DNA of 64,000 nucleotides from Eledone cirrhosa (GCA_964016885.1 OZ024750.1:7192001-7256000), one strand, 5' to 3'; counted from the first letter of the stretch, positions 8,002-38,500 are shown. The notes: generated by a model from the letters alone, not told the origin. Made by a program: numbers and translations.

Positions 8002-8028
8002 CTGAGGTTGCTGAACCTTATAAGAATA
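8002..8028 (-). CDS. slo: Candidate 27-nt phase-2 microexon (N)ILIRFSNL, with an internal acceptor giving a 9-nt form (8002-8010)
   Basis: tcctatctttctattctatcctatccttggtcgtag|TATTCTTATAAGGTTCAG CAACCTCAG|gtatta. Both lengths are multiples of 3 and open in the phase left by the 91-nt exon. Confidence 0.5.
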
Positions 8029-8578
8029 CTACGACCAAGGATAGGATAGAATAGAAAGATAGGATAAGATGGGATTATCTCCTTAATGTAGCTCAAAATT
8101 TTCATATCTGAGCTAACCACTTCCCTTGCATTTTACACTTTAATATTTTCATCTATAAAACCATAACTATACATAATATATATGTAGATGTGTGAAAAGA
8201 TATCATGTTTAAAAAGAACCGAATATGCAACAAAAGACAAGAATTTGTAACAATAATTTCTGAAATTTGTTTGCCCCAGGTTTCAGTATACTTTGTTAAA
8301 ATGATATAAAAAAAAAAAGAAACAGAGCAATATATGAAATAATCAGTATAATATCAATGTAGTAATAGTAAAAACTAGTAGTACCTAGTTATCTGATGGT
8401 TATCCCCACCTTATCCAAGTTAAGTCAACATACAAACACAGATACATACACATTTGCCAAACAGAATATAGACCAATGGTTAATAAACCTAACTATTGCC
8501 TTCTAGGCATAGTAGTTCTTTTGGTTATTTTGGAAATATAAGCTAATCTTCAGCATGAATTAGATATGTAAAGACATA

Positions 8579-8639
<61 letters not shown>

Positions 8640-8723
8640 CATACATATATACACACACATACATATATATATACATACATACGTTTTATATATATATATA
8701 CATATAAATATAATGAAGGAGGT

Positions 8724-8868
8724 GTGGTAAGGAACCAGATGGACTATAACGCACCAGAGTACTCAATACTTAGAGTAGTAGAGTGGGTAATAGGAAAATG
8801 TTTAACCCCGACGGCAGAGCTCAAGCCGTTTCGACGGCTTGAGCTCTGCTGTTGGGGTTAAACATTTT

Positions 8869-8873
<5 letters not shown>
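8724..8873. repeat. Short repeat family ending in a fold-back; copies at ~24508-24685 and ~27193-27316
   Basis: Shared TGTGGTAAGGAACCAGATGGAC...ACCAGAGTACTC...GAGTGGGTAATAGG. Inverted arms of ~40 bp (8790-8873) and ~50 bp (24575-24685). Confidence 0.85.
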
Positions 8874-8918
<45 letters not shown>

Positions 8919-9684
8919 TAGATATAGCTGTATGAGTGCATATGTGTGTGTATTCATAGTTGTGGTTTAGAAATATTTAAAAGGTGTAGATTGTTGAACC
9001 ATTCATCTGGTCCATATGAAGACATAATTTTGTACAAGAAGGACAAACATAGATATTTAAAACGATTTACACATTTGTAGAAATGAAAATATGAGAAAAA
9101 AGTTGGATTTAATCACATATAATAAAACATTTAACCATATATTTATAACAGGAATATAATTAAATATAATCTTTTGATAAAAAAACTATAAATAATAAAA
9201 CTTTTTCCAAAAAATTACTGATTTCCTTTATATATATATATATGTATATATATTTCCTTTTTTGTTGAAAACAAATATTTAAAAAAAATCTCCTAGATAT
9301 AAAGAAGAAATCATATACTTCAATAATGCATAATTAATTAAATAATTAATTAATTTGATAAAATGGAAAAAAGTATCCACCAATAAAGTAGGACAGAATG
9401 AAAACTTTAATTAATTCTTTTTCTTTCATTTAAGTGACAAATTAATTTTCAAAGAAAGAAAATTTGAAAAAGACATTTACAATGACAAATTAAAAAACAA
9501 GTTTAGTTTTGATTTATTATTCTCTGCAGAGCTGTTCTGCTAGATATATTAAAAATATTAAATGGAGCTGTACTGTTTCAGTCAATACTTTATATTGTTT
9601 CTTTAGAGTAGTTTATTTTAAGAACAGATATTTAATTAAGAAAAAGATATTAAAAACAGAAGAGGAAATGGTACACATTCTTAC

Positions 9685-9775
9685 TTTGAAATATTTGAAA
9701 TTTTCTTCATTTGTGACCCTGGACTAGCAGCAGCTTTATCTTTCTTGTTTGGCATGTTTGTCACCGATGATAGAA
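9685..9775 (-). CDS. slo: Slo1 linker exon (91 nt): (V)[29 protein letters not shown](K/N)
   Basis: Acceptor atttttaccatttcag, donor gtaaga, phase 1 to 2, open. Its phase and Lys/Ser/Pro-rich composition resemble the vertebrate exon [32 protein letters not shown]. Confidence 0.85.
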
Positions 9776-10689
9776 CTGAAATGGTAAAAATATACTACGT
9801 AGATATAAGTTTTTAATATAGGCCATATGGTAGTTGTAGTGCACCTGAGCACTGTACACAATGATTTTCATTATTATTTTTTTTAGTGGTAGATATCAGT
9901 TTTTAGTATAGGCCATAATATAGAACTGAAATGGTAAAGATATACTATGTAGGTATCAGTGTTTAATATAGGCCATTAGTTTCAGATTTACTATGTGATA
10001 TTCATACCTTTTTAAAAGTAATAATGCATAGAAAAAGGAAATTATCTCTCACTATGATACTTATTAATGCTGTTTACATTATATTTAAAATAAACCTTTT
10101 TTACAATCATTATATAAATGATTGTAAAAAAGGTTTATTTTAAATATAATGTAAACAGCATTAATAAGTATGTCTATTATGGCAGCAGCAATAATAATTG
10201 TCATCATAATTTAAATGACTGGCTACTTGGACAGGCAGTGAGTCTATGTCAGCATTCTATATAAAGTAAAACAAAGGGGAAATTGGGATGTTCATCAAAT
10301 ACTCAGACAACAGTGTATATCTCATAACATTTAAAAAAAATACGTGCACAGATTACAAGGATATGTTAAATATTGAAATGATATAGACTTATATTCATGA
10401 TTCTGAAATAAAATGAAGAAGCTGTTTTCTTCTATTTTTTAAAAATGTTTATTTTCTTAATCTTTGTTATAAATTTTATTTTACACAAAAAACCCTACAC
10501 TGTATAGTCCTGTACCATTTTTAATGTTTCCTTAATGTGAGCCCTGTGTGGCTAATAATGAAATTATCATTATTATTATTTTTTTAATTATTTTCTTTTG
10601 ATATCTGTATATTCACATACACCTCACCAGGCCTCAACAAGGGGCCCTGAGTAGATGACAACACATTTTTCCAGCACCATAGATAACTG

Positions 10690-10725
<36 letters not shown>

Positions 10726-12613
10726 TTTTTTTTTTAAATTTTATTTATCTTGCTTTATGATCATACGAGTTATCACCAAGTCACAATCAGTGACCTCAAG
10801 AGACAACAAGGTCTGCCATGTTCAAGAAAGAACACATACACACATACATCTATCTTTAGGTGTTTAGATTTGTGATGTATTTAAATTGACAGATTCTTCC
10901 TTAGTATATGGGCAGTTCCCATTAATATTATATTTTGTATTATTATTATTAGTACTATCTTTTGTATTATTATTATTATTACCCCCCCCCCCCCCCTGTT
11001 TAAAAACAAAACACATATTTGCCGCAATGTATCATTAAGACAAGAAATGTAACGTTGATTGAATAAACACATAAACTAAAGATTGAATATAAACACTTTT
11101 ATATATCATAAATCTGATAGAATATTCATGTCCAATAATGGACAAAAAAAATCTATAAATCAGATAAAACTGAATGAATTTTAGATTTTAATCTTATTTG
11201 AATTACATTCAATAGATTTAATTTTTATTTCAGCAGTTTTATGAAAACAATAACAATAAAAAATGTATTGTTTAAAATAACATTTCTGAGTACATATTTC
11301 ATTTCTCCAATTCTGAAATCAATGATTTAATAAACTAATGAGTGAGCCTCTTTGTGATTGTTTGAGCAAGAAATAGCAGTTAAATCTCCCTTAACCCTGT
11401 AGCATTTAAACTGACCATATCCGGTCATAATTCTCTCACCCCAATCTGATCAAACCAGCCATAACCGCTTGCTCATATTTATGTTAAGGTATAGTTCTAA
11501 AAATAAATAATATCAAAATTCCATTGATTCGATATTATGTGAGGTAATTATGTGAGATAAAGCCTTTACTTTTAAAATATAATAGTAAATATAGAGTAAT
11601 GTAATGCTAAAGAGTTAAATCACATTCTATCATCTTAAATAAGGATGAAGACATTAAATAATATAGTCTTAGATATTATTAAGTTCAGAAAAATAAAATA
11701 TTGAGATGAATGACTTGAATGTCTTTGATCATTGGCCCTGGACTTTGGTTAAACAACAGCAATCAATACATCAATAATTTATTAATTTCATGTCAATATC
11801 ATAAGTTTAGTCTATTGATAATTGCTTGATAATAATTAAGAATATTCATTAATGATTGATTTAGCCGAATTAACCTTGAAACTTAATTATAAATACTATT
11901 TATGATATGTTAGTCTCATTCTCAGAAGCACTAGCAACATAAATGAAGCGAAATAACAACAACTGGGAATTGAATATTGACTTGATTTGCTCGAAGCTCA
12001 CTACTTTGTCTAGGATGATTAGTTTTACTTAAAAAAAATAAAGAATTATCAACAACAGTAGAAGCAATTTTAAGTAAATATTGATTATCTCGATTGTAAT
12101 ATTGACTCTAGATCAATGGTTCTTAACCTTTTTCTATTACAGCACCCCTTGAGATTTTGAAATTCCACCCCACATCCCTATACCAAGTACATAAGACAAA
12201 AGAACTTGAATTTTCAGGTCAAATCATCAGCTACTTAGCTGCTACTAGTGTTAATCAATAGAGTACATAGCTCAGAGAGCTACTTCATTTTATCAATATC
12301 AGAAGGATGAAATGTAAAATGGACCTTGGTAGGTTTTGAACTTAGAATGTAAAGAGTCGAACAAGTACTGCAAAGTAATTGTTCTGATGCTCTAATGTCA
12401 CTACCTGGCAAAATAATAAGTTAATAACATTTACCTGTCAGTAATTGCTGAAATAGGTTTGACATAATTTTGAGGTAATAAAATAAAAAAATAAATGACA
12501 ATAATATACTGTAGAGATATAAAAATAAACTAGCTTTCTAAGCATGCTTCGTGTGAAGGTATTGGAAACTAATACAAAATCAATAATACAAAGTGAAAAA
12601 ATTGAAGATGAGC

Positions 12614-12646
<33 letters not shown>

Positions 12647-13700
12647 TATATACACATATATATACACATATATATACATATACACACATATATATACATA
12701 TCGATAAAATCAATGATATATAGTGTGATATATGTGATGGAATATATTAGAATGGGAACAATGTTTCATGCTCATGCTGTTTATCTTATAGAGAACATTT
12801 ACAGTAATAAAGTATACAATAGAATGAATGGACATCTAAATATTTAGTCAATTCAGAAACAGTCATATATACAATGGCAAGACATGTACAGACATATAGA
12901 CATAGACATGTCATATATACAAAAGCAAGACATGTGCACACACAAACACACATATATACACACAGACAAGCACACACACATATTCACACATATATACACA
13001 CATACAAGCACACACACATATTCACACATATATACACACAGACAAGCACACACACATATTCACACATATATACACACAGACAAGCACACACACACATATT
13101 CACACATATATACACAGACAAGCACACACACATATTCACACACATATATACACACAGACAAGCACACACATATATACACACAGACAAGCACACACACATA
13201 TTCACACACATATATACACACAGGCAAGCACACACACATATTCATACATATATATACACACAGACAAACACACACATATATACACGGACAAACACATACA
13301 CATATATATTCACACACATACACATGTCAAAAAACAGAGTTGAAGGAATCTGGTGATGGTTAAAAATATATAGTGATGTATATGAAAGAAAGAGAAATGT
13401 TAAGCATAAATTTGATGATATAAAATATCTGTTTGCTTTTAGAACTGTTGAGTTATCTCTCTCTCTGTATACACACACACACACATATATATATACACAC
13501 ATATACACACACGCACACTCATATATATATATACATATATACATATTCATATATATATTCTTTAGCCTTTGCTCGCACCAACCAGAGGTATATGGTCTTT
13601 AAAGCGATGAAATACCAATGAAGGCTGGAAGATGACTGATGAAGGACTAAATTTATTCATATGTAACCCATTTGCAACCACGCAGCATGCCATGTTTTCA

Positions 13701-13763
<63 letters not shown>

Positions 13764-14365
13764 AAATATTTGTTTTTTTTTCTTTGTTCAAACTATGCTG
13801 TAAAATGGAGGGGTAGAGAGGGCCCATGGGTCCAGTAAGACATCCTCTCTAGTGCTGGTGACATGAATAAAAGCACCCAGTCCATGCTGTAAAGTGGCAC
13901 TGGTGTTAGGAAGGGCATCCAACCAGTCTATCAATGCCAAAACAATTATTATTTAATTATGATATATATATGAAGGCACATGGCTTAGTGGTTAGAGCAT
14001 TGGGCTTGCAATCGAAAGGTTGTGAGTTCAATTCTCGGACCGGGTGATGTGTTGTTTCCTTGAGCAAGACACTTTATTTCACATTGCTCCAGTTTACTCA
14101 GCTGTAGAAATGAGATGATAAGACTGGAGTCCCTATCATTCCACTGTAAAGTGGTCGTGGAGGTGCCACGGCAAAAAAAGCACCCAGCACTCACTGTAAA
14201 TGAGGTTGGTGTTAGGAAGGGCATCCAGCTGTAGAAATCAAGCCAGAATCGGTTCCCGTATGAGCAAGGCAAGGTCAGCCGACCGGACACTGCCCGCAAC
14301 AGGACAACCCGTCTAACCCATGCTAGCGTGGAAGAACGGACGTAAAACAGTGATGATGATGATGA

Positions 14366-14421
<56 letters not shown>

Positions 14422-15064
14422 TTTATTTAATTACATAATAAACAACACAATATAATTATTCCATTACCAAAAGTTTCAGGAGACTAGACGATCCTTACAG
14501 AAATGTCCAGTTCGTTCATCAGATGAAATAGTTTCTGATGAAAGAACCGGACGTTTCTGTAAGGATCATCTAGTCTATAAGGTACTAAGCTTCACGCATT
14601 GATCTGTGGAGTATTGATTATGCATGACATAAACAAACGTCACTACTTGCTAATATGCATTTACTCTACTATAACATAACCATTACATTATATATAATTT
14701 ACCTATTTTAAACAATTTTATAATTTGTTTATTTAAGAAAAAAAAATCTTAAATTTGGAATAAAATTAAATTTTTCCAGGATATTTAATAATTTCAAATA
14801 TTTAAAAATATGAAATTCCTCTAAAAGATAACAACTAATTTAACCTCATTATATATTTTCAGCTCAGATAATTCTGTAATTCTGAATTTGAAAGCAAAAT
14901 ATATAACTTGAAACATGTTTAATTATCTGAATGTGACCTGAGAATTTTTGGTGAAGAATCTGAAGTCTGAGCAACTAAGTTATACTGACAATTCTGCAGT
15001 TAATTCCAAGCTCCTAGGATACAGTTTACAAATATATATATATTAGGATAGAACTAGTTAGATC

Positions 15065-15095
<31 letters not shown>

Positions 15096-18000
15096 TTATG
15101 TACATATTTGTATGTATGTATGTAGGTATATATATATATGTGTGTGTGTGTATGCCTGTGTGTGAGTGGCTCCAGGCAGGAAATGTGGTACTAATATCTA
15201 ATGGAATTTCCTACACGAGGAGAAAGGATGATTAAATAAGATTAATTTGCTTGATATTTCATTTGAAGTGTTGATGGCTAGTAATTGGATGAGACGAGGA
15301 GTGAGAGGGAATAGCCAAAGAAATAAACATGGTTTTGGGAAGAAAGATGCCTAAAGAGTGATGTAATGGCAGCAATAATAAAACAACATATGATGGAGTG
15401 TGTGATATTTAGTAATGTGATAGTATAAAGATGTTTGGGTGAACAGAGCTTATTATAAAGATAACTATCCTTAAACAAGACCTGAATAAGCTCGATTCCG
15501 CAGGCACTGCTAGAGTCCTCAATAATCAGTTTATGGGACTAGAGTTGTTCCAAATGGGATAGTGTAAAAATATTTGATGGACAGAGCTTGTTATAAAGAT
15601 TATAGCACTGAGATCTGGATCATCCTTAAACAAGACCTGAATAAGCTCGATACCACAGGCACTGCTAGAGTCCTCAATAATCAGTTTATGGGACTAGAGT
15701 TGTTCCAAATGGGATAGTGTAAAAATATTTGATGGACAGAGCTTGTTATAAAGATTATAGCACTGAGATCTGGATCATCCTTAAACAAGACCTGAATAAG
15801 CTCGATTCCGCAGGCACTGCTAGAGTCCTCAATAATCAGTTTATGGGACTAGAGTTGTTCCAAATGGGATAGTGTAAAAATATTTGATGGACAGAGCTTG
15901 TTATAAAGATTATAGCACTGAGATCTGGATCATCCTTAAACAAGACCTGAATAAGCTCGATTCCGCAGGCACTGCTAGAGTCCTCAATAATCAGTTTATG
16001 GGACTAGAGTTGTTCCAAATGGGATAGTGTAAAAATATTTGATGGACAGAGCTTGTTATAAAGATTATAGCACTGAGATCTGGATCATCCTTAAACAAGA
16101 CCTGAATAAGCTCGATTCCGCAGGCACTGCTAGAGTCCTCAATAATCAGTTTATGGGACTAGAGTTGTTCCAAATGGGATAGTGTAAAAATATTTGATGG
16201 ACAGAGCTTGTTATAAAGATTATAGCACTGAGATCTGGATCATCCTTAAACAAGACCTGAATAAGCTCGATACCACAGGCACTGCTAGAGTCCTCAATAA
16301 TCAGTTTATGGGACTAGAGTTGTTCCAAATGGGATAGTGTAAAAATATTTGATGGACAGAGCTTGTTATAAAGATTATAGCACTGAGATCTGGATCATCC
16401 TTAAACAAGACCTGAATAAGCTCGATACCACAGGCACTGCTAGAGTCCTCAATAATCAGTTTATGGGACTAGAGTTGTTCCAAATGGGATAGTGTAAAAA
16501 TATTTGATGGACAGAGCTTGTTATAAAGATTATAGCACTGAGATCTGGATCATCCTTAAACAAGACCTGAATAAGCTCGATTCCGCAGGCACTGCTAGAG
16601 TCCTCAATAATCAGTTTATGGGACTAGAGTTGTTCCAAATGGGATAGTGTAAAAATATTTGATGGACAGAGCTTGTTATAAAGATTATAGCACTGAGATC
16701 TGGATCATCCTTAAACAAGACCTGAATAAGCTCGATACCACAGGCACTGCTAGAGTTCTCAATAATCAGTTTATGGGACTAGAGTTGTTCCAAATGGGAT
16801 AGTGTAAAAATATTTGATGGACAGAGCTTGTTATAAAGATTATAGCACTGAGATCTGGATCATCCTTAAACAAGACCTGAATAAGCTCGATACCACAGGC
16901 ACTGCTAGAGTCCTCAATAATCAGTTTATGGGACTAGAGTTGTTCCAAATGTAATGTCTTCATCAGATCCTTGGTGTCTCTCTATGCAACTGAATCTCAA
17001 ACAACATCTAAGAATAATGCCAGCAGCAGCCGACCATTGAAGACCAGGCTACAGTGGTTTGGCCACACCTGCAGGATGAGAACCAAAAAACTACCACACC
17101 AACTTTTGTCATGACAACGACCCATGTATTGGAGAATCCAGTGTAGCGCACCAAAGAAGACATAGATGAAACAAATCGAAGAGGACCTGAAATCACAGCG
17201 CCATGACCTCAACCATGCTAAGGTCAGCACCATGGATAGAAAAGCATGGAATAACATCATCATTGGAGTCATTCATTCAGTGGCACCCAGAGCAGTGTTT
17301 TGGTTGAGAGGACAGCCTTCCCCAATCACCAGCTAGAGATCGAAGAAGAAGAAGAAGAAGAAGTAGAAGGAGAAGAAGAAAATAGAAGATTTAAAGAGAA
17401 ATCTTTCTGGTATATTGAGGATTGTAGATGTGGTTACGCTGGGAATCAATAAACAATTTAGGATGTTTGCAACTGTGGAGAATGGAGAATTTCAGATATT
17501 GGAACAATATTTTTTATGCTAGGTTGAACTTAAACAGAAGTTGCTTGAGGACAAAAGTAATTCTTATATGTGCAGAAATTAAATTTATTTAATTGTATTT
17601 TTGACTTGGTATTTATTATATTACAATATTCCAAATTATTTTATTTTACAAGGTACCATCACTAAATAGAATTTAAATTTCCTTCAACATTGTTTCGATA
17701 GACAGTCATTTTTTCTTTTAAAAATTTAGCATGGTTTGTCTAAACTGTTTACAACATCCTTTTTCCTATAATATAATAATATATTATTAATGAAATAAAA
17801 AAGTATGAGTAAATCCTATCACTAAAGCTTGTTATTTTTAGATTGTTACTTTCACAAGTCTTAAACCTGACATTTATCAGTGTCAGTTTCGAGTAATAGT
17901 GATAGCTATTGAAAGAAAGCCTACATCATCTTATAAGCAATTATATTTACAACGAAAACAACTTTTTATTTTATGATATTAATGTAATGCAGGATTGCAA

Positions 18001-18401
18001 AGAAACTAATGGCTTCTTATAGACTTCAGATTATAGTTTACTTTAATCATTTTTAATTATAAAACAGATGTTCTGTAATTTCGGTATGTTTACATAAAAT
18101 ATAGCAATTAATATATCTTTGAAGGTTCAAAATCTAAGCTCGGTCACCTGCCACCTTAATAAATTGAGACTGTAATACACTAAATACTCTCGGGTCTCAA
18201 ATAATAAGGGAAGGGGGTTGGAAAATCGGTAATTTTTTAAAGGTGTCTCCCTGGATTTTTTTTTTTAAAACCAGAATTAGTTGTTTAGTTTACATTAGTA
18301 TATTATAAAAGTCAGTTGCCAAACCGTGGAATGGAACTTGAAACCATGTGGTTGCAAAGTAGACTTCTTAACCACACAACCATGTCTGAACACACACACT
18401 C

Positions 18402-18436
<35 letters not shown>

Positions 18437-18562
18437 AGAGAGAGAGAGAGAGAGAGAGTGTGTGTGTGTACCATAGTATCTGAGGAAGAAGAATATCTTA
18501 CAATTTACTAACAAGCTGTGAAAAATGTCAAGATAACACACATCACAATAAACTGACGATTT

Positions 18563-18601
<39 letters not shown>

Positions 18602-21600
18602 TTACACACATATATATATGAGCTGGTGGGGGAGTAGGAGAGAGAGAGAAAAATGGATATAGATACAGAATCATATATATATATATATATGTGTGTGTGT
18701 GAGAGAGAGAGTATATATATATATATATATATATAAACACATGCAATTGTTTACATTGGTTTATCTTTTAAAAGGAAAACTAAGAATAAAACAAAGAAAG
18801 TGTTTGAAGAAAAGTAAATAAGAAATTTAACAAAGTTAAAAAAAGAAAAAAAATGACAGGAGATAATAGCAGAGAATATGTATACATAGTATATAGTTCT
18901 GTTTGTATATATATATATAAAGTGTATAAATAAAGTGTATAGTTGTGTTGTGTTTGTGATATATATATATTGTGTTGTGTTTGTGTTTATATATATATAG
19001 TTTATAGTTTAGTTGTGTTTGTACATATATATATATAGTATATAGTTGTGTTTGTGTGTGTGTGTATATATATATATAGTATATAGTTGTATTTGTATAT
19101 ATATATATATAGTATATAGTTGTGTTTGTGTGTGTGTATGTGTGTATATATATATATAGTATATAGTTGTATTTGTATATATATATATATATAGTATATA
19201 GTTGTGTTTGTATATATATGTATATTATAAAGTTGTTTTTGTGTACAAATAATATACAGATACAGTTGTTGTGTGTATATATGCATGATATAAGAATTTA
19301 GAATAATAATTCAGCTACTGTGAAGCCATAAAAGAGAGAAGTCATGTTTATTAAAGCAAAGAGTAAGAGTTTATTATGAGAAATAAAGTGAATTTTGTCA
19401 GACAAAGAGAAACAGACACTTCACTTCACATTGCTCCAGTACACCTAGTTACACATAGACAGATACATACATACACATATATACGCATATATGTACACAG
19501 ATAGAAATAAGAGGTAGACAGAGTGATAGATCTAAAGAGAGGGGGAAGGATGAGGAGAAGGAAGAGGAGAATGAAGAGGAGAATGAAGAGGAGAAGGAAG
19601 AGGAGAAGGAAGAGAAGGAGGAGGAAGAGAAGGAGGAGGAAGAGAAGGAGGAGGAAGATAACAGTAAAAGATTATCTACATTAGTTAATATTGAACTGAA
19701 AATAAAGCAAGTCTTCGTATTGTTAAGAAAAACAGATTCCAAGCTGGTTATAATTCTACTGCAATGCTATTTATTTTAAAATATATATATTTTTTTAAAA
19801 TGTTTCTACGAAGAGAAATTTTTAAACAATAATTTACAAGTCATTGCTACAGTCATTGCTGTTGTTGTCGGTCATTGATGGCTTCAGTATCACCATTATT
19901 ATATGTTAGCTGTAGTGTACAGGGGTAGAAGATTGCACTGGTATGGATATATAATTGTTTCTATTTTAGGCACAAGGCCAGCAATTACCCAGTGCATTAC
20001 TGGTACTTTGTTTTATCGACCCCGGAAGGATGAAAGGCAAAGTTAACCTCGGCAGGATTTGAACTCAGATCGTAAAGGGACGTAACTATGCTGGAAAAGC
20101 ATGTCTGACCCTCTACCGATACTGCCATGGATATATAATGCATTTGAATGATGACTGTTGGGTGAAAACATTGCCTTACACTTTCCCTAATAGATGTACA
20201 AAACAAAGAGGCAGGGACATTCTATGATGAGAGAAAGAGAGAGACAAGTGGACTCAATAAAAATGCCAGCTGTGCAGGGTTGCATGTTGTGTTCTTGAGC
20301 AAAACACTTCATTTCACACTGCTCCAGTATACTTAGTTGAAAATGAGTTCTAGCAATAACTGGGGGTTTAACCCTGCGATGGACTGGTATCCTATCCTGG
20401 GGGAAATCTTGTACTCTCAGTCGCTTCACACAATGAAACCAAGATAAGCACTGGCTTAACAAGCCTTCTGGCTTGAGACAGACTTAGGTTATGAAAGCTA
20501 CAGAAATAGTTATATCACAATTTATTAAGAACAGAATTAGCCTAGCTGGGATATCCTTATCAACATCTAATTTTAGTTTCTTTATACTTGCACAAGTTAG
20601 AAGACTCTGCTTGCTTTTATAAACAGAATTAAATCAAGATTTATGTTAAGGACTTGATCATATTATAAACAGTATTATATAAACACTGGAATAGCTATTT
20701 ATGCAAATAGGTATATTTACTTTGAAGCTACAGGATTTTCTCTTACTTTGATGCCATAATATCAAAGAAACACAAGTTTCTTTCAAATCCCTGTTATTTA
20801 TAGTCTTGACATAAGCTGTGATGCAGTTATATAATTTTAAAATTATCAAAGGAAAGGAAATATTCCTGATCATCGTTATCGTTATTTTATGTCTGCTTTT
20901 CTATGCTGATATGGGTTGACACTGAAGAGTCAATGGCTATCCACTCCAACTATGGGTTAAATAGTTTCACAAACCTGCAATTGGCCAAGCGTGGTGAGTA
21001 GAGATACACCCGTGACATGACCAAAACCAAACAGAAAATAGTGGAGGGCAAAACCAGGAAGGGGTTCCTTCAACAGGAGTGAGAAGACCCTGGATTGGAT
21101 TGGATTGGATTTCTTATATATAATGAATGGCTGAAGAATTCAATGGTTATACATGAAAAAGCACAGACACATACATATATACATGTACAGACACACATAC
21201 ATAAAGTTTGAGCAGTAAAGATGCTGCAAATAATACATTTCAGAGTTCAACCAGGTCATTACGGTATCAAATTTGAGGTATCACTGTTTTGAGTTAAACC
21301 TGGTCTTTGGAGTGTCAAATTTGAGGTATCACTGTTTTGAGTTAAACCAGGTCTTTAGGGTGTCAAGTTTAAGTTGTCACTATTTTTAGTTAAACCAGGT
21401 CTTTACAGTATCAAGTTTAATGCATGCATCACTCTTTTGAATTATTAGCTTTTAAACAATCTGGTGTTTGTGTTAGGGTGTAACAAAAATAAAAATAAAA
21501 ATAAAAATAAAAATAAAAATAAAAATAAAAATAAAAATAAAAATAAAAATAAAAATAAAAATAAAAATAAAAATAAAAATAAAAATAAAAATAAAAATAA

Positions 21601-23201: not shown

Positions 23202-23277
<76 letters not shown>

Positions 23278-24452: not shown

Positions 24453-24500
<48 letters not shown>

Positions 24501-26387
24501 AAGGAATTGTGGTAAGGAACCAGATGGACCATAATGCACCAGAGTACTCAAAAAAAAGGGTAATAGAGTGGGAAATAGGAAAAAGTATGACCCCGACGGC
24601 AGAGCTCAAGCTGCTTCAACGGCTATTTATGGACTAGCCGTCGAAACAGCTTGAGCTCTGCCGTTGGGGTCATATTTTTTCCTATATATATATATGTATG
24701 TATATATATATTTATATATATATATATATACACCAGGTCTGAACACAAAGGAACCAAATTCCCAGTCACTGCCTCCGTCTCTCCCCATTACTCTTACTAT
24801 TATGCAAATGGATGCCCGTGTGCTAGTCGCCCAACAGTCCCGGTGGACTGTAATGATAGCATGACATTATTTCGAAGAAATATTATAGCAAGACTGAAAT
24901 TATTTTCCAATTCCAATGTAGTTTAAATATCTAGTTATATATTTCTCAAATTAATAACAGATAATGAGAAAAATTCTTTGAGTCATACAAAAATTCTTTG
25001 AGTCATACAAAACTTCATTTCAAAAATAAGTTGAACTTAACTCTAAATCTTCGTTTTACTGTTCAAGTAATACGCTGCAGATTTTGTTTTATCGCTATCA
25101 AATAGAAGTTTCTTCCTATAAACTTGCAACTTAGTCGAAACAGCCAAGCAGCAAGTTGTTTCACTTGTTAAATGTTTTACATTGTAATCTTATACTCAGT
25201 TAGTATAACCAGAAGCTATATCTTTATTAAGGTTTATTACTATTTCTCATTGAAGTATGTTACTCACACACGTCTCTACATATAATGTAAGATATATGTT
25301 AAGTATAAATTAGTTAATTTAATATTTCTTAAATATAAACTAACTATTAGCATCTGAAATAAGCATGAAAAAACAAACGAAAAAAACACGCAAAAAAAAC
25401 CAAAAATGGCAACGTCGCAGATTTTAAACCTCTTGTCGAATTAATGCAATGATATGTTAGCATAGTTAACTAACATGTTATCAACTTACAGAGTTTCTGT
25501 TGACTAACATAAATACTAGTGTAGCCTATTTGACTGTTGCTGATGGAAAAAACAACAACAAAACATGCTATAACAGTAATATGAACACACAACACAAACT
25601 TCTGATTGTTATAGCTGTCATATATATATATATATATAATCTATCTAGGGTGGGTAAAATTCCTGAGATCCATGGACGAGTTCTCTCCAGCAGTCTCTGT
25701 CCTTCATCATCACCGCCATGTCCTGCATCTCTCAGAGACAAGTGTCTGTCCTTAGGGCATCAATATATGTCAACCTCACTCTCCCTCTTCTAGTGTGTCC
25801 GTATAGGGGCTCCCACAGGACCACTGAGTGCAGTGTCAACTCTGAATGTCGTTGAGCATGTCCAGCTAACCTCAGTCTCCTCTGTATATGTTACATAGAG
25901 TTTACACTAGGAAATTCTTGTCATCAGTTGTTCACTGGAGATCACAACAATTTCAAAAGCTTTCAGCAATATAACTTTATTAATTCCTAGCTTTAACAAA
26001 TCTTCTGCATTTAAGGTTTCACTATCATATAGCACCATGTTATGTTCACAAACATCATACAATAAGCACTTTACTTTGAGTGAAAAAAGCCATTGTTATC
26101 AGTAGAAATAATAGGTTTTGAATATATTTTCCACCTTGTTCTTATCTTGAATACTATGTTATAAGAACACCCACTTCCACTGTCTGTCAATTCAGTCACA
26201 TATGTAACAAAACTGTATGTGCATATATGTGTGTGTATATAAGCTTATACTTAGAACTACTCAGCATATCTCAAACACTGGCTCTATAACCTCAAATTAT
26301 TTATCGCTAACTACCTTTCATATATATATCATCAGAAAGTATTGAACCACTTACTGTGGTTACCCCCGATTGAACCAGGGATAAACT

Positions 26388-26482
<95 letters not shown>

Positions 26483-26542
26483 GAAATTGAGTTTTGCTTA
26501 TTTCTACCCGCCGAAATACGATTCTCGCTGAATTTATATTTA

Positions 26543-26573
<31 letters not shown>

Positions 26574-26811
26574 CTATCTATATAATTTGTTTATGTTCAT
26601 AAGTGCCAGAAGATTAGGTCACAACTTTGATCCCTCTTACAATCTGGAGATATGGTCAATAATGGGCTTTGAAATCTTAGGTATCGCTTTTGTTCGGTGT
26701 ATGAACATAAATAAATAGTATATCAGTTCTCTTCCCTGATTGAGCACTGTTTTCCTTTTTCCTTTTCCATATCTATGGATATTTTCTACAAACACACACA
26801 CATAAAAACAT

Positions 26812-26869
<58 letters not shown>

Positions 26870-27136
26870 AATGAATAATAACAGGCAGACATCATAAAAA
26901 GGTAATTTATTCCGTGTGCTTACAAGTGTAAACACTTATAAGCACACAGAATAAATTACCTTTTTATGATGTCTACCTGTTATTATTCATTCTTTATATA
27001 CACTCCGGAATACTGAAGGATCAGGAACTAAGTTTCTTGAACAATTCTTCCATAACTCGTAGAGTAACCTCTTACCGTACGTCAACCATATCCAGTGTAG
27101 TAATTAACCATTACTACATCTTGGATAATCCTATAC

Positions 27137-27183
<47 letters not shown>

Positions 27184-27311
27184 CAAAGAAAGTGTGGTAA
27201 GATACCAGGTGGACCATGACACACCAGACTACTTGATACTTTGGGTAGTAGAGTGGGTAATAGGATCTAGCTGTCGAAACACCCAGAGCTCAGCCGTTGG
27301 GGTCCTGACTC

Positions 27312-27349
<38 letters not shown>

Positions 27350-27966
27350 TCATCATCATCATCATCATCATATATATATATATATAAATATGAAATAGAA
27401 GGCAACCACAAAGTTTGTGCCCACCACAATATTAATAGAATTAGGTAGGTTTTGCAGAACTTGACATATTAATAGTGTAACTGAAACAGCATCCTCAACA
27501 ACTAATAGTGTATGGTATACTATGGTGGAAATGGTACACTGTGTTGGTAAACAAATACCTTTTTAGTTATATTATTTTTTGTATAATATAATTTTGATAA
27601 AATGATGTTGAATCAATAAGCCAGTGATTCTACTTATATTTTCTATGCATTATTGAATATAATATATCCTACTTGACAAGTCATCCACTGGCAAGCTGGT
27701 GGTATCTTCTGTTACTAATACTTAAGTATGTTTAATATTATTATTTTTGTTGTTATAGATATGTAAAAAAAAAAGAAACTATGATATATTGATTACTCTG
27801 TAACTAAAGCAGAAGTTTGAAACAAAACTATGTCATATAACATGTTTATTTGTATGGGAACATGTTTTAACTATGTCAGTAGAGAAACATATCATCACCA
27901 TCGTCATAAATATCATCATCATCGACATCATCATCATCATCAGCATGATCACTACCACCATCTTAC

Positions 27967-27999
<33 letters not shown>

Positions 28000-29025
28000 G
28001 CAGCATGATCACCATCGTTGTCATAGTTTTGATGTTTGATTTTTCCCCTTTTACAAAGCTGCTGGACGAGATTCAGACTAAGATATTGAAGTCACCTGGT
28101 GAAGTAGGAGTCAAACTAGTGACTCACATAGTCAGCCAGGTAACAGAGGATAACCTTTAACTGTTACAAAGGAAAAGGAGATTCTCTAGAAAGGAGGAGC
28201 TACAACTGTTGAGGCTTAAAACTAATGAAAATAGTAGAAAGTGTTTTGGTAGAACTACATAGGGAAAAAGTCAAATTAGATGAGATGCAGTTTGGATGTG
28301 TGACTTGTCTAATGTGAGACGTGTTTTTTTTGGAGGGTATAAGGTATAGGATGCAGGTGGATTATATATATGTGTATATACATATATATATTTATATATA
28401 TATATATATATCATCATCATCATTCATCATCATCATTTTACGTCCGCTTTTCCCTGCTTGCAAGGGTGGGACGGGTCTTATTCAGCACAGCATCTCTCCA
28501 CTCGTCACGGTCCCTCGTCATCTCCACCGTGAGCTTCAATGATCTGAGGTCTGTTCTCACCACCTCTGTCCATGTTTTTCGTGGTCTACCTCTACCACGT
28601 CTTCCTTCAACTAGCATTTCCTGGCACTTCTTCACCCATCGGTCATCCTCCATGCGCATCACATGTCCATACCACCTCAGTCTCCTCTCCCGTACACTAC
28701 ATTCTATCCCTCTCAGACACAGTCTCTCTCTCAACACATTTATGCTGGGTCGTTCACGCACATTTACACTGCACATCCAACGGAGCATGCTTGCCTCATT
28801 TCTCTCCAGCCATCGCATATCCTCTGCAGTTGCTGCCCATGTCTCACTACCATGCAGCATCGCGCTCCTCACACAGGCATCATACAACCGGCCTTTCGTA
28901 CGCAGGGATTATATATATATATATATATATAATAAATATATATTAGTTAGTGAAATACAGCTTCTGCTGTATTCTTTGCTGTTTGTAAACGAAGCTAATT
29001 TTCAAGACAACGCTAAGCTCTGTAT

Positions 29026-29077
<52 letters not shown>

Positions 29078-29765
29078 CTTGAATAAGCACCTGAGGATTA
29101 GGTCACAATTTTGATACCTCTTACGTTCTAGAGATATCGTCAAAAACCTTAGGTAGCGCTTTTGTTCTGCATATGAACATAAATAAATAGTATAATATAA
29201 ATATATATATATATATATATAAAACACACATATATATATAGTATAGTATATATATATATATAATATACATTGAAGTTTTTAATTTATGTTCAAATATATA
29301 ACAAGCATAAAACGTGAGAAAGAATGCAATAATATTTATAACAGATTTAAAGATTAATAATAAAGAAAATACACACATGCACACAGACACAAATACACAT
29401 ACATATATATATATGTACATACATACACACAGATACAGATTAAAAAGTGAATCTAACTCATGCAAACGGAATATAAGCTAACCAACTACTGGCATGGTTT
29501 TACTAACTAGCTATAGCTAAAAATGCATAAAAGATACAATGGTAAAAACCACAACAATAACCACAGTGATTTAAATACATTAAATAAAGCATAAATGTGT
29601 GGAATATTATTGCTATTGACCCATAACAGTTAAAAAGGGCAGGATTTTCTTACCCGATGCTGTGAAAAGAAATAAAGATGAATTATCTCAAAATTTTGAG
29701 AAACAGAGAGAGAAATATATATATATATGTATATATATATTATGGTTATTGCCTTCAATATATAT

Positions 29766-29800
<35 letters not shown>

Positions 29801-29839
29801 AATATATATATATATATGTATATATATATGTATATACAA

Positions 29840-29873
<34 letters not shown>

Positions 29874-31988
29874 GTAAAGAGAGAGAAAAATAACATCAAT
29901 ATAAATAAACAGTGAAAAACAAAATGAAGAAAAGATATTTTCACAGCTAGAATTTTAACAACCTGTAGAGACAAAGCATTGATATTTAAGATATAACTCT
30001 GATAACAAAGAAAACAAGAGAAATGCATGAATATAAATTTACATAAATTTACATATATCTAACATTAGCAAAGGAGAAATTAATACAGTGTTCATAAAAT
30101 AGAATCAAAAGTCAATTATGATTGAAACATTACTTACCTAATGTGGAGGAACAGAGAATAAAACAAAAATAACTTAAAAAACATTAAATAACTACAGAAG
30201 AAAAATATATTACATTGGTGAAAATATAATTGTTTCTACTTTTGGCACAAGGCCAGCAATTATCAGTGTATTACTGGTACTTTATTTTATCGACCCTGTA
30301 AGGATGAAAGGCAAAGTTAACTTGGAGAAAATATAATAATGGCTTCTACTATAGGCACAAGGCCAGCAATTTGAAGGGAGGGGAAAGTCAATTAAATCGA
30401 CCCCAGTGTATTACTGGTGCTTTATTTTATTGACCCCTGTAAGGATGAAAGATAAAGCTAACCTCGGTGAGATTTGAACTCAGAACCTAAAGGGACATAA
30501 CTCTATGCTGTTATGCATGGTGTCTGACGTTCTACTGATTCTGCTAATCCACCGAAAAATATAATAATTGCTTCTAATTTAGGCACAAGGGCAGGAATTT
30601 GTGGGTGGGTGGATGTGCGGTGATTGGGAGAGGAAATTCACTTATATTGACCTCCAATAGGTGGACTAGTCGTTTAATTTATCAAACTTAGAAAGACCAA
30701 TAGCAAAGTTAACCTTGGCGTGATTTGAACTCAGAACATAAAGAGTCAGAACAAATACTGAAGAGAATTTTCTCTGACTCTCTAACAATTCTGCCAATCC
30801 ATTACTGTTAGTCGCACCAATAATTAGTTACATTGATAAAAGGCCAGGAATTTTGGATGAAAGATCAGTCAATTATGTCAACCCTGTTACATGACTGGTA
30901 CTATATTTTATTGATTCTAGTATGATGGAAGGTAAAAACCTGCTTGTCTCATAATAAGCAGTAGCTCATGTGACAATCATCAGTTTAATTAGATGACCTT
31001 AGAGTCATGGACACCAGTGGTTTCACAGATGATCAACTATTAATTCGAGAATAGGTTGACACAACTGCTCCATGCTCTAGTTAACAGAGAAATCTATGAT
31101 TATGTAGGCATGGTGAGTTGCATATATTCTAGCCATTAGTAAAAGCAAAATGAATGTTTCCCCTTCGATGGAGGGATGACTCAAGAAGAAGAAGAAGAAG
31201 AAGAAGAAGATAAATAGATTTAATTGGCTCCTTTGAAGGATGAGGGTAAAGCTGTCTCCAGTGAGATTTGAATGTAGATGGATATATATCTAAATAAAGC
31301 AAAGTATTGCTATGAATTTTGAAAAACAAACAAACAAATAAACACATAAAGGTGTTTGGTAGTTGAAAGGTAAAGAAATATCTAACATAAGACAATAAAA
31401 AAAAGACTATGAAATACAAGTTACCAAGAAGAAACACACTTAGATGTAATGTAGAATGTCATATATATATATATATATATACATGCATATATATATACGC
31501 ACACATGAAATAATATATATACATGTATATATTATAAGTGGTTTTACATACAGAGATGTTCTTATACTATATCACAGAAAATGAGAAAATACATACACAC
31601 ATACATTTATATATACATATATGTGTGTATCTGTTTATATATATTTATATATATATATATATGTATGTAGAAAAATCTACCTAAATATACAGTAGTGTCC
31701 AATCCGTATGAAGAACTCAATGTAATCCAAATATCATGAAAAGAGAAGATGCACTCAAAACTTTTCGATGAAAATCCCAGGACAACAGAGTCAAGATAAA
31801 TTAATAAAAACAATGAATAAAAACAAAGAACAAGTTCCTTATATTAAAAAATTCATCATTTTACGATCGTTTCTAGAATATATATGTGTGTGTTGGTATG
31901 TATATCATATAGATCTATGTAAAAATATTTTACAAACTATCAGAGGAAATATACATACCTTCACATATATATGCTGTCTTCAGAAATA

Positions 31989-32030
<42 letters not shown>

Positions 32031-32325
32031 TTCGTCAAGTATGAAATTTGTAGAAATTTGTTTTGTTTCTACAAATTTCATATTTGACGATCCAACATAT
32101 GTGAACATATATAATATATATATTAATATGGAAACATTGCACAAGTGATCAAGAAAAACAAATACTAGCACAGACAAAAATAATACAAAGCAAAAGAGAT
32201 ACAAATATTAGAACATTGACTGCTGTCTGGAAGGTCATGATGATTTAGACAATAGTGACTAAAGTTATAAATATAGAGTTACTGGGGAGATGTGCAATGA
32301 AGACAGGAGAGCAACAGAATATACA

Positions 32326-32378
<53 letters not shown>

Positions 32379-34827
32379 TATATATATGGAGGCACATGGC
32401 TTAGTGGTTAGAGCATTGGCCTTGCAATCAAAAGGTTGTGAGTTCAATTCTCAGACCGGGTGATGTGTTGTTTCCTTGAGCAAGACACTTTATTTCACAT
32501 TGCTCCAGTTTACTCAGCTGTAAAAGTGGTCGTGGCGGTGCCACGGCAAAAAGCACCCAGCACTCACTGTAAATGAGGTTGGTGTTAGGAAGGACATCCA
32601 GCTATAGAAACCAAGCCAGAAAAAGTTTTGTATGAGCAAGACACAGTCATCTGACCTGACTTGTCATCATCACAATAGGACAACTTGTTTAACTCATGCT
32701 AGTGTGGAAAATGGACATTAAATGATGATATATATAGACATATATATATATTTATATAATGATGATATTTATATAATGATGATATATATAGACACATATA
32801 TATATATGACAATGCAAATAACAGAAATAAAAATACCGAAAGCGAATAAAATTTCACCGTTTGGAAAGAAGAAACAAAAAAAATATATAACAATAAATAC
32901 GGCCACAGACACCAATATACCAGACTTCGTGACATATCAGAAATACTAGAGTCATTTACTTGTTTTACTGGCACATTTTAGGATTTATAGAACAGAATTC
33001 CCTGTAATAAATTAATTATCAACACCATGATAATTTTAAAATGAAAGCAAAAAGTTAAATTTCTTTTACTTGTTTATATTTCTGTATGATGCATGATAAA
33101 ATATGTCATAAGAAAATTAAGAAAATATCTTCATCTGAAATATAATTGTTTCTACTTTTGGCACAAGGCCAGCAATTAATCCAGTGCATTACTGGTACTT
33201 TATTTTATTGACCTCCGTAAGAATGAAAGGCAAAGTTAACCTCGGTGGGATTTGAACTCAGATCATAAAGGGACTATGAAATATACAAAGCTTATTTAAT
33301 CATTCTTAAAATCAATAAATGTGCCAATAATCCAATAAATGAACTATATTTAAAGCAACAGATAAAAATAAAATAAAGACTTTTCCCAAATAAAAAAATA
33401 TCTGAAGACATTATTTTAGTTAAGAAGAATCAGCTAAATAGAAATGAATTGAACAGATTCTGTTAATGACAATGAGAAGAAGATTGGTCCAACAGAGGCT
33501 GTTTTGGTTTTTTTACCATTTATGGAATGGTCAAACAGAAACTATTGTTACTATTATATAAAAAATGGCCAACAGTGAGTGAAGCTATCATTTAATGAAA
33601 CGTACAGTGTCAGCTGTGAGCAATGGTTCAACAGAGTCTATTGTTACCATCATTTGAAAATGTTCAAATAGAGATTCCATCTTACTGTAGAGCAGTGGTT
33701 CCCAAGCTTTTGTGTACCATGTCCCACCTAGAGATTCCATCTTACTGTAGAGCAGTGGTTCCCAAGCTTTTGTGTACCATGTCTCACCTAGAGATTCCAT
33801 CTTACTGTAGAGCAGTGGTTCCCTAGCTTTTGTGTACCATGTCCCACCTCAACATCTCAAACATTTTTATGTCCCACTTTGATATAAAAACAGCAATGAT
33901 CAACTACAAAGTGTAAACAAATTGGCGTATGGTGATGTCAAAGGAACAATAACATGTGTGGAGGAGGTGAGACAGGAGTTTCTGACAGTAATGTCTACCA
34001 AAGCTGCCTTGGTGTAGGTGGTGCCAGATACACAATAACATGTGTGGAGGAGGTGAGACAGGAGTTTCTGACAGTAATGTCTACCAAAGTTGCCTTGGTG
34101 TAGGTGATGCCAGATACACAATAACATGTGTGGAGGAGGTGAGACAGGAGTTTCTGACAGTAATGTCTACCAAAGTTGCCTTGGTGTAGGTGGTGCCAGA
34201 TACACAATAACATGTGTGGAGGAGGTGAGACAGGAGTTTCCGACAGTAATGTCTACCAAAGCTGCCTTGCTGTAAAAGCAATACGGTAAAATCTGAAGTT
34301 TGCTCTCATTAACATCATTTTCAAATTGCCCCCCTTCAATATTCAAATTGCTCCCCTGTGGGGTGTGCACCCTATGTTGGGAATCACTGCTGTAGAGCTT
34401 TATAGAGCCAGTTGTTAGGACGACCCAAACAGGATCTATTATTACATTTTTTGGTAAGATTTTTTGGTAAGATGGTTCAAGAGAATCTGTTGTTTAGCAT
34501 TAGATGGAAATGACCCAATGAAAACTGTTTGCTATCATTAACAAATATGACTCAACAGAGAGCCTGTTGTTAGCGGTAAACAGAAGAGTTGAACAGAGTC
34601 TGTTATTAGCACTAAAAGAAATAGTTTTGACTGAGTTGACTTGCTAACAGTGACAGATAAGATAATATTACACTCTACCTAGAACTGCGGATGCTCCTTT
34701 TCGGAATAATGCAACTGTGAGAGGGAAAAAGAAATTTGAAAACAATAAGTTTAGTTATCTAATCAATACTCTAAATTGTTCATGTCTGGTGCTTTCAGTT
34801 GAAAAATAGAATCATGAAATTAAATAT

Positions 34828-34876
<49 letters not shown>

Positions 34877-35488
34877 TATAAATATATATATATTTTTAAT
34901 ATGTATATATATATGTATTAAAAAAAATATATATATATATATACATTAAAAATATATATATATATATATGTGTATGTGTGTATATATATATGTATATATA
35001 TATATATATATATATAAATATATATATATTAATAAAATATATGTATATATATCAATAAAATATATGTATATATATATATATATATATATACATATATGAG
35101 GACGAGTTAATGAAAACCTAATGGATTTATTAGATACTTAACCCCTCATTTGGCTATTTAAAATGTTAATAAAGAAGGCTGTAAGTAGAAGAATATTTTC
35201 AGATAGTGTTGAAATGGAAATTGTATAAGACAGAATAGTATCAAATAGCAGACATCAATATATTGATGACGATGATGGTGATGATGGTAATGATGATGAT
35301 AATGATAATGGTAATGATGATGATAATAATATAGTAAAGAGTTATAAGTGGAAGTCTTTTCTTGATTGACTGGTTCCTGGTTCTGTTTATTAAATTTTTT
35401 GACATGGCAAGTCAGTGTCACAAATGTATGAATGTTTTCTTTATGGGTTAAGGTAATCTGAGAGCTTTGTTTGTGGGTTAAAGCGATT

Positions 35489-35569
<81 letters not shown>

Positions 35570-38500
35570 CTCTGTGTTGCATATTTGCTATCCATTGTAT
35601 ACCGTGCTAATTGTGTGTGTGTGTGTGTTCATGATTAGAGCATTGGGCTTACAATTGGGAAGATGTGAGTTCGATTTCCCAACCGGGTTTTGTGTTGTGT
35701 TCTTGAGCAAGACACTTTATTTCATATTGCTCCAATTTTCTCAGCTGTAGAAATGGGTTATGATGTCACTGGTGCCAAGCTGTATCAGACATTGCCTTTC
35801 CCTTGAACAACATCAGTGGCGTGGAGTGGGGAGGGGGGAGGGAGGAGACTGGTATGCATGGGCAACTGCTGGTCTTCTACAAACAAATTTTTTGGCAAGT
35901 TTGTGCCTTGGAGGGAAACTTTCTCGGTTCAAAACCATGGGCCTTTGTGACCAATGGGGGCCTTAAAAAAAGCTATATATATATATATATATAGTAAAGA
36001 AACTATGTAATTTGCAGCTGTAGCTTGTAGAAATCTTTAAAAAGGGTGACTTTATTTCATAGAGCCAAAGCTGGTTTTGGCTGGATCAGTAACAAATGTG
36101 TTAAAAATTCTAACAACAGAAATTATTCTGCCATTAAGATTTTCAATAGTATCAAGACTAAATTAATCAACAATGTATTGTAGAGTATATTAATCAAGAA
36201 GAATGATAATAGAGAAAAGGATGTTGATGGCATATTGGTCCAGATTGATGTGAAGATTTAAGAAATTTAATCACGCATGTTAAGACAATGATGTTTCAGG
36301 AATAAATAAAATGGTGGAAAGACTGGAATTGTTTTACACTTCAACAGAAATTGATTGCAGAAAATCATGTGATGATTCCTAAACAGTTACATTGTTCCAC
36401 CATTTACATTCTACAGAGAATGTCTTAATGATTAAAAAAAAAAGTTTCCATCAATAGTACTAGAGTTTATTTCAGGTGGATTCTTTAGTTTATTCTTTAA
36501 TAATGGTTTTGGCTCAAGGCCAACACTTTGAGAGGAAAGAGAAAGTAAGTTGATTAAATTGACCCCAGTGCATTACTGGTGTTTTATTTTATCCACCCTG
36601 TAAGGATGAAAGGCAAAGCTAACCTCAGTGGTATTTGAACTCAGAATGCAAAGGACCGTAACTATATGCCACTAAGCATGTTGTCCAATGCTCTATCGAT
36701 TACTGCCAATCCACTACCCTAGTTTATTCTTTAATAATAATTGTTTCTACTTTTGGCACAAGGCCAGCAATTAACCAGTGCATTACTGGTACTTTATTTT
36801 ATCGACCCCGTAAGGATGAAAGGCAAAGTTAACCTCGGCGGGATTGCCCCAATAATAGAAATACTTAATGCTACACCAGCCTACAGTCTAAGATCAGCAA
36901 GTGTTGGTAGGCAAAACCAACTGGCAGGTGACCCAGGGGTAGACCCCAAGCAAGCTGGTTGGATAACATCCATGAGCTTGGCTGGTCACACTTAGGGATC
37001 CAACTGGATCAGTTGGAGACGGTTGCTTCTGACAGGACCCACTGGAAGGAGTGTTTGAGGACGACCCTCTCAGGAATAAGTGGGCAAAGAAGAAGAAGAA
37101 GAAAAATATGTAAAAATGTACAAAACAGAAATATTGCAATAGTATTCAATTAGATAAGTTGCTTCATATATAAATCTCAGAACAATGAGAGTTCATATTG
37201 ATAACGACAGAATAAAATATTGCTCTCTGAATATTTAGATATTCTTCACCAATTATTCTGTTCCGTAATTCACAACAATTAATAAATGTTATTTGAAATT
37301 CCTTTCAGTTACATTGTCAGTTTATTTCTAGTACAATGCTGAAATTAATCATGACAGATGCAAATGAAAACAAACAATATTCCTACCTGGCCGACATCGA
37401 CACTTTTTAATAGCTCGAACATCTGTAACAACTCCATGGCAAGTCTTGCAGTAATAGAAGGCCCTAGAAACAATAACATAAATAACATAAATACATAAAT
37501 AAATATACTAAATTGAAACAGATCTTAATTAAAATTTAAGATTTTAACGATTGCTTTCTTTTCAGAATATTAAACGAAAATGATAATTGAATATGTGACA
37601 GGTTGAAAATTTTAAAAATGGATAACAGAGAATAATCAGTGGAAACTATATAGGTTGTGGTTTTAAATAATTGTATTGCAAATAGGTGGTTTCTGGTTCA
37701 ATCTCACTATGTCATAGATTGGATTAAACTTTATGTGTGTGAAATTTGGGAGATAGAAACTGTGTGTAAACCCACAAGAGGGTACATTTCTTCTCAAGGG
37801 GCACATTTAATCTGTGACTCAGTTTAACACTCTCCTCTGGCCCTTGGGTTTCTTTAGCAGAGCCCATACTATTGCCATATCTCTTGTCTGAGGGATATAT
37901 TCCTACCTTCCTCTCACCAGTAATAGAGGGATTGGAAAAAGGGCTACGGGTGTGAGGCTGTCTCAAATCTGCTTAGTAGGGTCTCTTTCAAATGAAACTG
38001 TAGCTAAGTGAGGATATATGTGTATGTATGGCTGTCTCAATTTTATTTGAGAGGTCTCTTTCACACACATACACACACATTTACACACACACATATAACT
38101 ATATATAAATGAGGTTGGTGCTAGGAAGGTCATCCAGCTGTAGAAACAAAGCCCAAATCAGTTCTGTATGAAAAAGACATGGTCACCTGACCTGTTCATT
38201 GCTCACAACAAGATAACTCATCGAACTCATGCCAGCGTGGAAAAACGGATGTTCAACGGTGATGATGATGGTGATGATGATGTAGACTGAGAAAGAAAAT
38301 ACCTTTTAACTTCTTCAGCAGATTCTGCAATGAAGAATCCTTGAGTTGCTCTTTCTATTTTGATTTTAGGTCCTGGGTTAATTGCTAGAGAACTTTCTCT
38401 GCTATCACCAAGACGGGCTTCTATAGCTAACAGCAACAGTTTCAGTTTCGTGAAACATAACCTAGAAGATAATATATCATAAAATATTATAAACAAAATA

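Follow-up and report, generated by a model that had tools for sequence, protein, structure and literature searches.

Probable cassette exons in the RCK1-RCK2 linker of the BK channel gene of Eledone cirrhosa: an array smaller than proposed

Introduction

How many of the short, splice-flanked segments in the RCK1-RCK2 linker region of a cephalopod BK channel gene are exons? For Eledone cirrhosa, eight microexon candidates had been proposed to form a combinatorial cassette system at this place. The window analysed here is the whole 64,000-nucleotide stretch of DNA from which that proposal was made (GCA_964016885.1, OZ024750.1:7192001-7256000; G000:C10:7192001-7256000), within a genome of 3.0 Gb. 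The array was found to be real yet smaller than proposed, with three cassettes supported within the span, one candidate left and four rejected. It represents a known splicing hot spot in a new species, and it is already contained in the annotation of related species.

The Slo1 locus and its anchor exons

With Octopus sinensis Slo1 as the tblastn query, an ordered series of Slo1/BK exons was found on the minus strand. It begins at the end of S6 (62842), runs to the C-terminus, spans the window and the next 40 kb (L002-L005) and is mostly 85-100% identical to the query. The gene was assigned to Slo1/BK (KCNMA1/slowpoke) by the presence of RCK1, the CxxCH motif, RCK2 and the Ca2+ bowl, ordered on this single strand. 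The RCK1 exon at 46534-46379 gave a slowpoke/Slo1 match with 100% identity to Octopus, Argonauta and several bivalves, and the linker peptides of the window closely matched those of Octopus. The spliced site lies, as had been predicted, in the RCK1-RCK2 linker of Slo1, just past the CxxCH/KKCxC motif, between two anchor exons:

37463-37387, minus strand: 77-nt Slo1 exon with the CxxCH motif, ending in phase 1; upstream anchor
9775-9685, minus strand: 91-nt linker exon, from phase 1 to phase 2; downstream anchor

The 77-nt exon was 96% identical to O. sinensis residues 614-641 by tblastn, and position 37386 is the first base of the 27,611-nt intron that separates it from the 91-nt exon. The peptide of the latter was 100% identical to O. 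sinensis and was found in all 24 cephalopod proteins with a full linker. Four cephalopod Slo1 clusters comprise 50 members, of which 32 were examined and yielded these 24; the 24 are drawn from about five annotated genomes plus a small number of assemblies and are not independent. The remaining eight proteins were set aside, among which P0139 stops after the 36-nt exon described below with 12 unrelated residues, an ending that may reflect intron read-through. No extra cephalopod linker variant was recovered by further linker searches, a second cluster listing, which contained the same 15 + 15 cephalopod members, or a representative library (11 matches).

Splice scores and the background rate of exon-like segments

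All eight candidates were present on the minus strand, each listed by its last exon base, with AG and GT ends, a length that is a multiple of 3 and no stop codon in the given phase. Such a filter is weak, because the 27,611-nt linker intron alone contains 976 segments of 3-120 nt that satisfy it (phase 1, stop-free, AG..GT), and the antisense strand has 1,488. Splice sites were therefore scored with a matrix derived from 16 constitutive exons of Slo1 in the same genome, with the candidate cassettes outside the training set. Five Slo1 introns further upstream on this strand, 23,095 nt in total, served to estimate chance expectations, given per 27.6 kb. Among the 976 segments, the 6-nt candidate ranked first and the 36-nt candidate ending at 34679 ranked second (0.0 expected by chance in both cases), followed by the 45-nt candidate in rank 4 and the 9-nt candidate in rank 8 (1.2 expected for each), the 114-nt candidate in rank 42 (23.9), the 15-nt candidate in rank 60 (45.4) and the 36-nt candidate ending at 25490 in rank 359 (399). 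In the phase-2 intron, the 27-nt segment at 8028-8002 was the best of 295 within its own 9.9 kb, with a score of 3.0 (7.2 expected per 27.6 kb), and its 9-nt form (8010-8002) scored 0.4. The proposal that the candidates carried proper splice signals thus held for only a part of them. Three of the seven phase-1 segments were above chance and backed by homologs, one was borderline, and the other three, together with the phase-2 pair, were at chance level. These ranks support the calls without deciding them, because the matrix is small and genuine cassettes may score low, as seen for the phase-2 exons of 90 nt (4.1) and 36 nt (5.1) introduced below.

Other segments of the intron also emerged from this scoring. 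An unlisted 42-nt segment at 29166-29125 (minus strand) took rank 3 of 976 and belongs to a dispersed repeat found in at least 46 places (best 40 of 463 candidates scored). Two further unlisted phase-1, stop-free segments on the minus strand, at 29998-29963 (36 nt) and 28160-28155 (6 nt), scored slightly above the 9-nt candidate, and their peptides were absent from the homolog linkers listed. A 54-nt AG..GTAAGT segment at 30191-30138 (minus strand) scored 8.7 and contains an in-frame phase-1 stop; it is possibly a poison exon, or chance. A recursive splice site of zero length at 30138 was rejected, its acceptor scoring 0.8. The sequence UGCAUG, which we take to be the RBFOX motif, occurred seven times on the sense and eight times on the antisense strand, and so is not enriched in the linker intron.

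Three supported cassettes

Three of the candidates within the linker intron matched peptides that are included or skipped in related species:

34714-34679, minus strand: 36-nt phase-1 cassette, whole codons for 11 residues; supported
29659-29654, minus strand: 6-nt phase-1 microexon, adds two residues (Ala-Ser when the preceding exon ends in G); supported
23077-23033, minus strand: 45-nt phase-1 cassette, whole codons for 14 residues, shared with gastropods; supported

The peptide of the 36-nt exon was identified in 17 of the 24 full linkers, with 100% identity by tblastn. Its homologs were also found in Aplysia (5TJ6), in bivalves, in the nemertean Lineus and, at the same place, in Drosophila slowpoke isoform J (7PXE); judged by these alignments, it is a peptide conserved across protostomes. 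The ortholog of the 45-nt exon was present in 10 of the 24, always together with the 36-nt exon. Its peptide is 73% identical to that of O. sinensis, with 4 of 15 residues different, and a similar peptide start was observed in Aplysia, Haliotis and Biomphalaria.

The 6-nt microexon is the shortest of the three, and its call is supported by the exact match of a two-residue insert in two lineages. The Ala-Ser insert was found in two of the 24 full linkers, namely XP_036356400.1 (P0121), which is isoform X7 of O. sinensis in RefSeq and carries the two residues directly between the 77- and 91-nt exons, and the assembly protein P0143 (98% to Sepia pharaonis, 92% to O. sinensis), in which they follow the 36-nt exon. 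According to the flanks and a frame check, this insert could come neither from a donor shifted further into the intron at the 77-nt exon nor from an acceptor placed upstream of the 91-nt exon. It could be argued that the 6-nt segment is unused in Eledone cirrhosa and that only the 36- and 45-nt exons alternate, since the insert comes from only two of 24 proteins, both of other species. However, the six bases of the window encode exactly the two residues of the octopus and cuttlefish-like records, and the segment has the top splice score of the entire intron in any frame, which makes its disuse very unlikely. A metagenome pattern scan that combined the 6-nt exon and its flanking splice sites returned 28 loci, which are chance matches, because none of the 28 had a Slo1 match.

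Each of the three peptides was missing from some of the 24 cephalopod linkers. Altogether, 12 combinations were distinguished among these proteins, with five patterns at the phase-1 intron and four at the phase-2 intron, counts to be read with the caution that long-range exon combinations in RefSeq isoforms may be partly computed. The combinatorial splicing that had been foreseen for the linker was thus observed in relatives, in patterns other than a fixed joining of the 77-, 36-, 45- and 91-nt exons. By orthology, the 36-, 6- and 45-nt segments are likely to be cassette exons in Eledone cirrhosa too.

At the phase-2 intron, the segment at 8002 had been proposed as the cassette that follows the 91-nt exon. 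The real ones were located just outside the window:

L002 9797-9708, on G000:C10 just before window base 1: phase-2 90-nt cassette, in 13 of 24 cephalopod proteins
L002 3291-3256, on G000:C10 just before window base 1: phase-2 36-nt cassette, in 12 of 24 cephalopod proteins

Candidates without homolog support

The remaining five candidates were the following:

25525-25490, minus strand: 36-nt candidate, acceptor score -10.7; not supported as drawn
25353-25345, minus strand: 9-nt candidate microexon, single copy; in 0 of 24 proteins
24847-24734, minus strand: 114-nt candidate, the end of a dispersed repeat; not supported
22832-22818, minus strand: 15-nt candidate, single copy, score -1.5; chance level, not supported
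8028/8010-8002, minus strand: 27/9-nt phase-2 candidate, single copy; weak, not supported

None of their peptides was present in the 24 cephalopod full linkers, an absence that is weak evidence because RefSeq and assembled contigs drop rare forms. The acceptor of the 36-nt candidate at 25490 is the third AG past the pyrimidine tract, 8 nt behind another AG, and the use of a better acceptor results in a 50-nt segment that is out of frame. The repeat of which the 114-nt candidate is part occurs in at least 41 places including itself (best 40 of 696 candidates scored); the apparent donor is the junction between the element and a TA run, and nearly all listed copies end at the same base.

The full proposal, in which all eight candidates constitute a combinatorial cassette system overlooked by annotation, draws on the fact that every segment is in frame and stop-free and that three of them were borne out, and also on the arrays of scallops and a nemertean, which reach at least four short cassettes. 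Nevertheless, with 976 segments passing the same filter, the candidates at 25490, of 114 nt and of 15 nt rank only 359, 42 and 60, the 114-nt segment is repeat-derived, five candidates have no counterpart in any of the 24 proteins, and RefSeq already contains those that are supported. A system of all eight is thus extremely unlikely. The companion statement, that automated annotation would largely miss the array, was wrong, because the RefSeq isoforms of Octopus already contain the 36-, 6- and 45-nt peptides and comparable arrays are found in molluscs and a nemertean. The candidates other than the 36-, 6- and 45-nt exons probably represent repeat DNA or sequence that resembles splice sites by chance.

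The 9-nt candidate stands somewhat apart from the other four. Its acceptor scored 7.5, within the constitutive range, and is preceded by an AG-free zone of 76 nt, with UGC at -12, CUAAY at -107 and unique flanks. About 140 nt upstream of it lies the frameshifting 50-nt segment mentioned above (25539-25490, minus strand), which is single-copy, has a score of 7.5 (1.2 expected by chance) and is possibly a poison exon.

Neural microexons that depend on eMIC/Srrm proteins measure 27 nt or less, a length within which the 6-nt exon and the 9-nt candidate fall and which the 36- and 45-nt exons exceed. A search with PF15230, presumably the family tied to the eMIC domain, gave no match in the genome and none in the controls either. 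According to PMC8797185, the sequence code of eMIC targets consists of a UGC near the 3′ splice site, a long AG-free zone and a branch-point motif. The 6-nt exon does not carry this signature, as it has an AG-free zone of 27 nt, no UGC within 20 nt and no CUAAY within 120 nt; among the short segments tested, only the 9-nt candidate shows it.

A larger array would follow if the 9-nt segment, perhaps together with the 50-nt frameshifting exon that ends at 25490, were a low-inclusion neural microexon missed in the annotation of relatives. Its constitutive-grade acceptor and the features that match those given for eMIC targets (PMC8797185), all within single-copy DNA, agree with this, as do the extra inserts of 15-24 nt at this linker site in other molluscs and the exon of three residues reported at the vertebrate site (PMC3840924). 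On the other side, the donor of the 9-nt segment scores -0.7, less than any of the 16 constitutive donors, about 1.2 segments of this quality are expected by chance, its peptide occurs in none of the 24 proteins, a UGC within 20 nt is also seen at one of eight constitutive acceptors, and the unlisted segment at 29166-29125, which ranks higher, turned out to be a repeat. The 9-nt candidate itself is therefore a doubtful microexon, and the larger array to which it would belong is likewise a tentative and rather unlikely reading. The array of three cassettes is the preferred one.

Comparison with known linker arrays

The five cassettes (36, 6 and 45 nt at the phase-1 intron, 90 and 36 nt at the phase-2 intron) were found in the same order and phases in the RefSeq Slo1 records of O. 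bimaculoides and O. sinensis (such as XP_052834501.1 and XP_036356400.1) and in KCNMA1 of Sepia pharaonis, although within these records the 6-nt exon is restricted to one O. sinensis isoform and one assembly protein. Similar arrays of short cassettes were observed in abalones, scallops, oysters, clams, snails and a nemertean, with 2-22 distinct linkers per group examined. In the RefSeq records of other molluscs and Lineus, a conserved first cassette of 36 nt is followed by lineage-specific short ones; the two-residue 6-nt exon was seen in cephalopod records only, whereas inserts of about 15-50 nt, peculiar to each lineage, occur in the other groups.

The octopus split residue 641, which is 21 residues past the first Cys of the motif, corresponds to human residue 633, at the point where the alignment breaks off; the intron of vertebrate splice site 2 may lie at this same human position, in phase 1. 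As in site 2, several short frame-keeping exons are combined in the relatives of Eledone (five patterns, 24 cephalopod proteins). The corresponding human motif, CKACH, occupies residues 612-616 (PMC12346439). Splice site 2 of vertebrate KCNMA1 (STREX/IYF) is likewise described in the RCK1-RCK2 linker by the CxxCH motif, where up to four exons (PMC13674577), one of them of three residues (PMC3840924), are used combinatorially. STREX is a cysteine-rich insert of about 58 residues with a CSC motif (PMC12346439). No octopus cassette is a homolog of STREX, because the supported cassettes are short (2-15 residues) and have no cysteine. Apart from their position, the octopus and vertebrate linker exons would seem to have been gained independently.

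Among other invertebrates, Drosophila slo contains 14 alternative exons in five regions (PMC3245913), and nematode slo-1 is spliced at several sites (PMC4270693). According to work cited in PMC3840924, linker inserts of C. elegans slo-1 act jointly with an RCK1 exon. Mutually exclusive duplicate copies of four RCK1 exons were not detected by tblastn in the window (54716-38303, minus strand), so that this partner mechanism may fail to carry over. The thrips protein P0001, unlike the window, has duplicated RCK1 exons.

Proposed role of the cassettes

Very probably, the 36-, 6- and 45-nt segments are cassettes, which would be likely to tune gating, and the remaining candidates are chance or repeat DNA. 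As the frame check demonstrated, the three exons start and end in phase 1, and the reading frame would be kept in any combination. Their inclusion or skipping, seen in relatives, would occur in Eledone cirrhosa as well, and it would give the disordered loop past the CxxCH motif a different length and sequence. By analogy with vertebrate and nematode BK channels, such a change could shift the Ca2+ and voltage dependence of the channel, or may instead alter phosphorylation or partner binding. Inclusion would likely be tissue- or neuron-dependent. The loop directly past CxxCH is unresolved in structures (PMC12346439). PMC3840924 and PMC12346439 document what inserts do at the vertebrate site, including a shift of half-activation of up to 50 mV by STREX (PMC3840924). 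Given the loop position and the insert effects in vertebrates and C. elegans, the most likely role of the cassettes would be to tune Ca2+/voltage gating, or the access of kinases and partners, in a graded and tissue-dependent manner. The AlphaFold model of O. sinensis Slo1 (P0125) had a mean pLDDT of 38 and was left out of the argument.

A more far-reaching scenario may also be considered, in which coleoids evolved their own two-residue neural microexon in the IYF/STREX intron and Eledone also a three-residue one (25345). Together with the 36/45- and 90/36-nt exons, up to 64 BK linkers would be set neuron by neuron, and the 50-nt frameshifting exon would serve as an off-switch. This scenario is quite unlikely.

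For the three-cassette array, the outcome is modest: the exons of the cephalopod BK linker have been mapped and checked, and no new mechanism is revealed. The search of the open-access literature found no paper on cephalopod Slo1 linker splicing or on the 6-nt microexon that octopus and cuttlefish-like records have in common, and the main text of a preprint (10.64898/2026.09.05.749416) mentioned octopus three times and slowpoke or KCNMA1 not at all. The 36-nt cassette, shared from flies to molluscs, is included in the Aplysia channel studied by cryo-EM (P0159, 5TJ6).

Additional features of the locus

Some other features of the locus were recorded. A tandem duplication of about 150 bp at 9990-9776 (minus strand) duplicates the acceptor of the 91-nt exon, and the second AG, at 9927-9926, lies 150 nt upstream of that acceptor, in frame, with a stop after seven codons; it is a candidate decoy acceptor or NMD-inducing alternative. 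Within the linker intron, a unit of 155 bp is repeated 9.6 times with 99% identity at 15467-16951, and a stop-to-stop frame of 156 aa at 28438-28908 (minus strand) is reminiscent of the C-terminus of a LINE reverse transcriptase. Downstream of the window, alternative C-terminal Slo1 exons were identified by tblastn at L004 7757-7671 and L005 9807-9742, and the C-termini also vary among cephalopod Slo1 isoforms.
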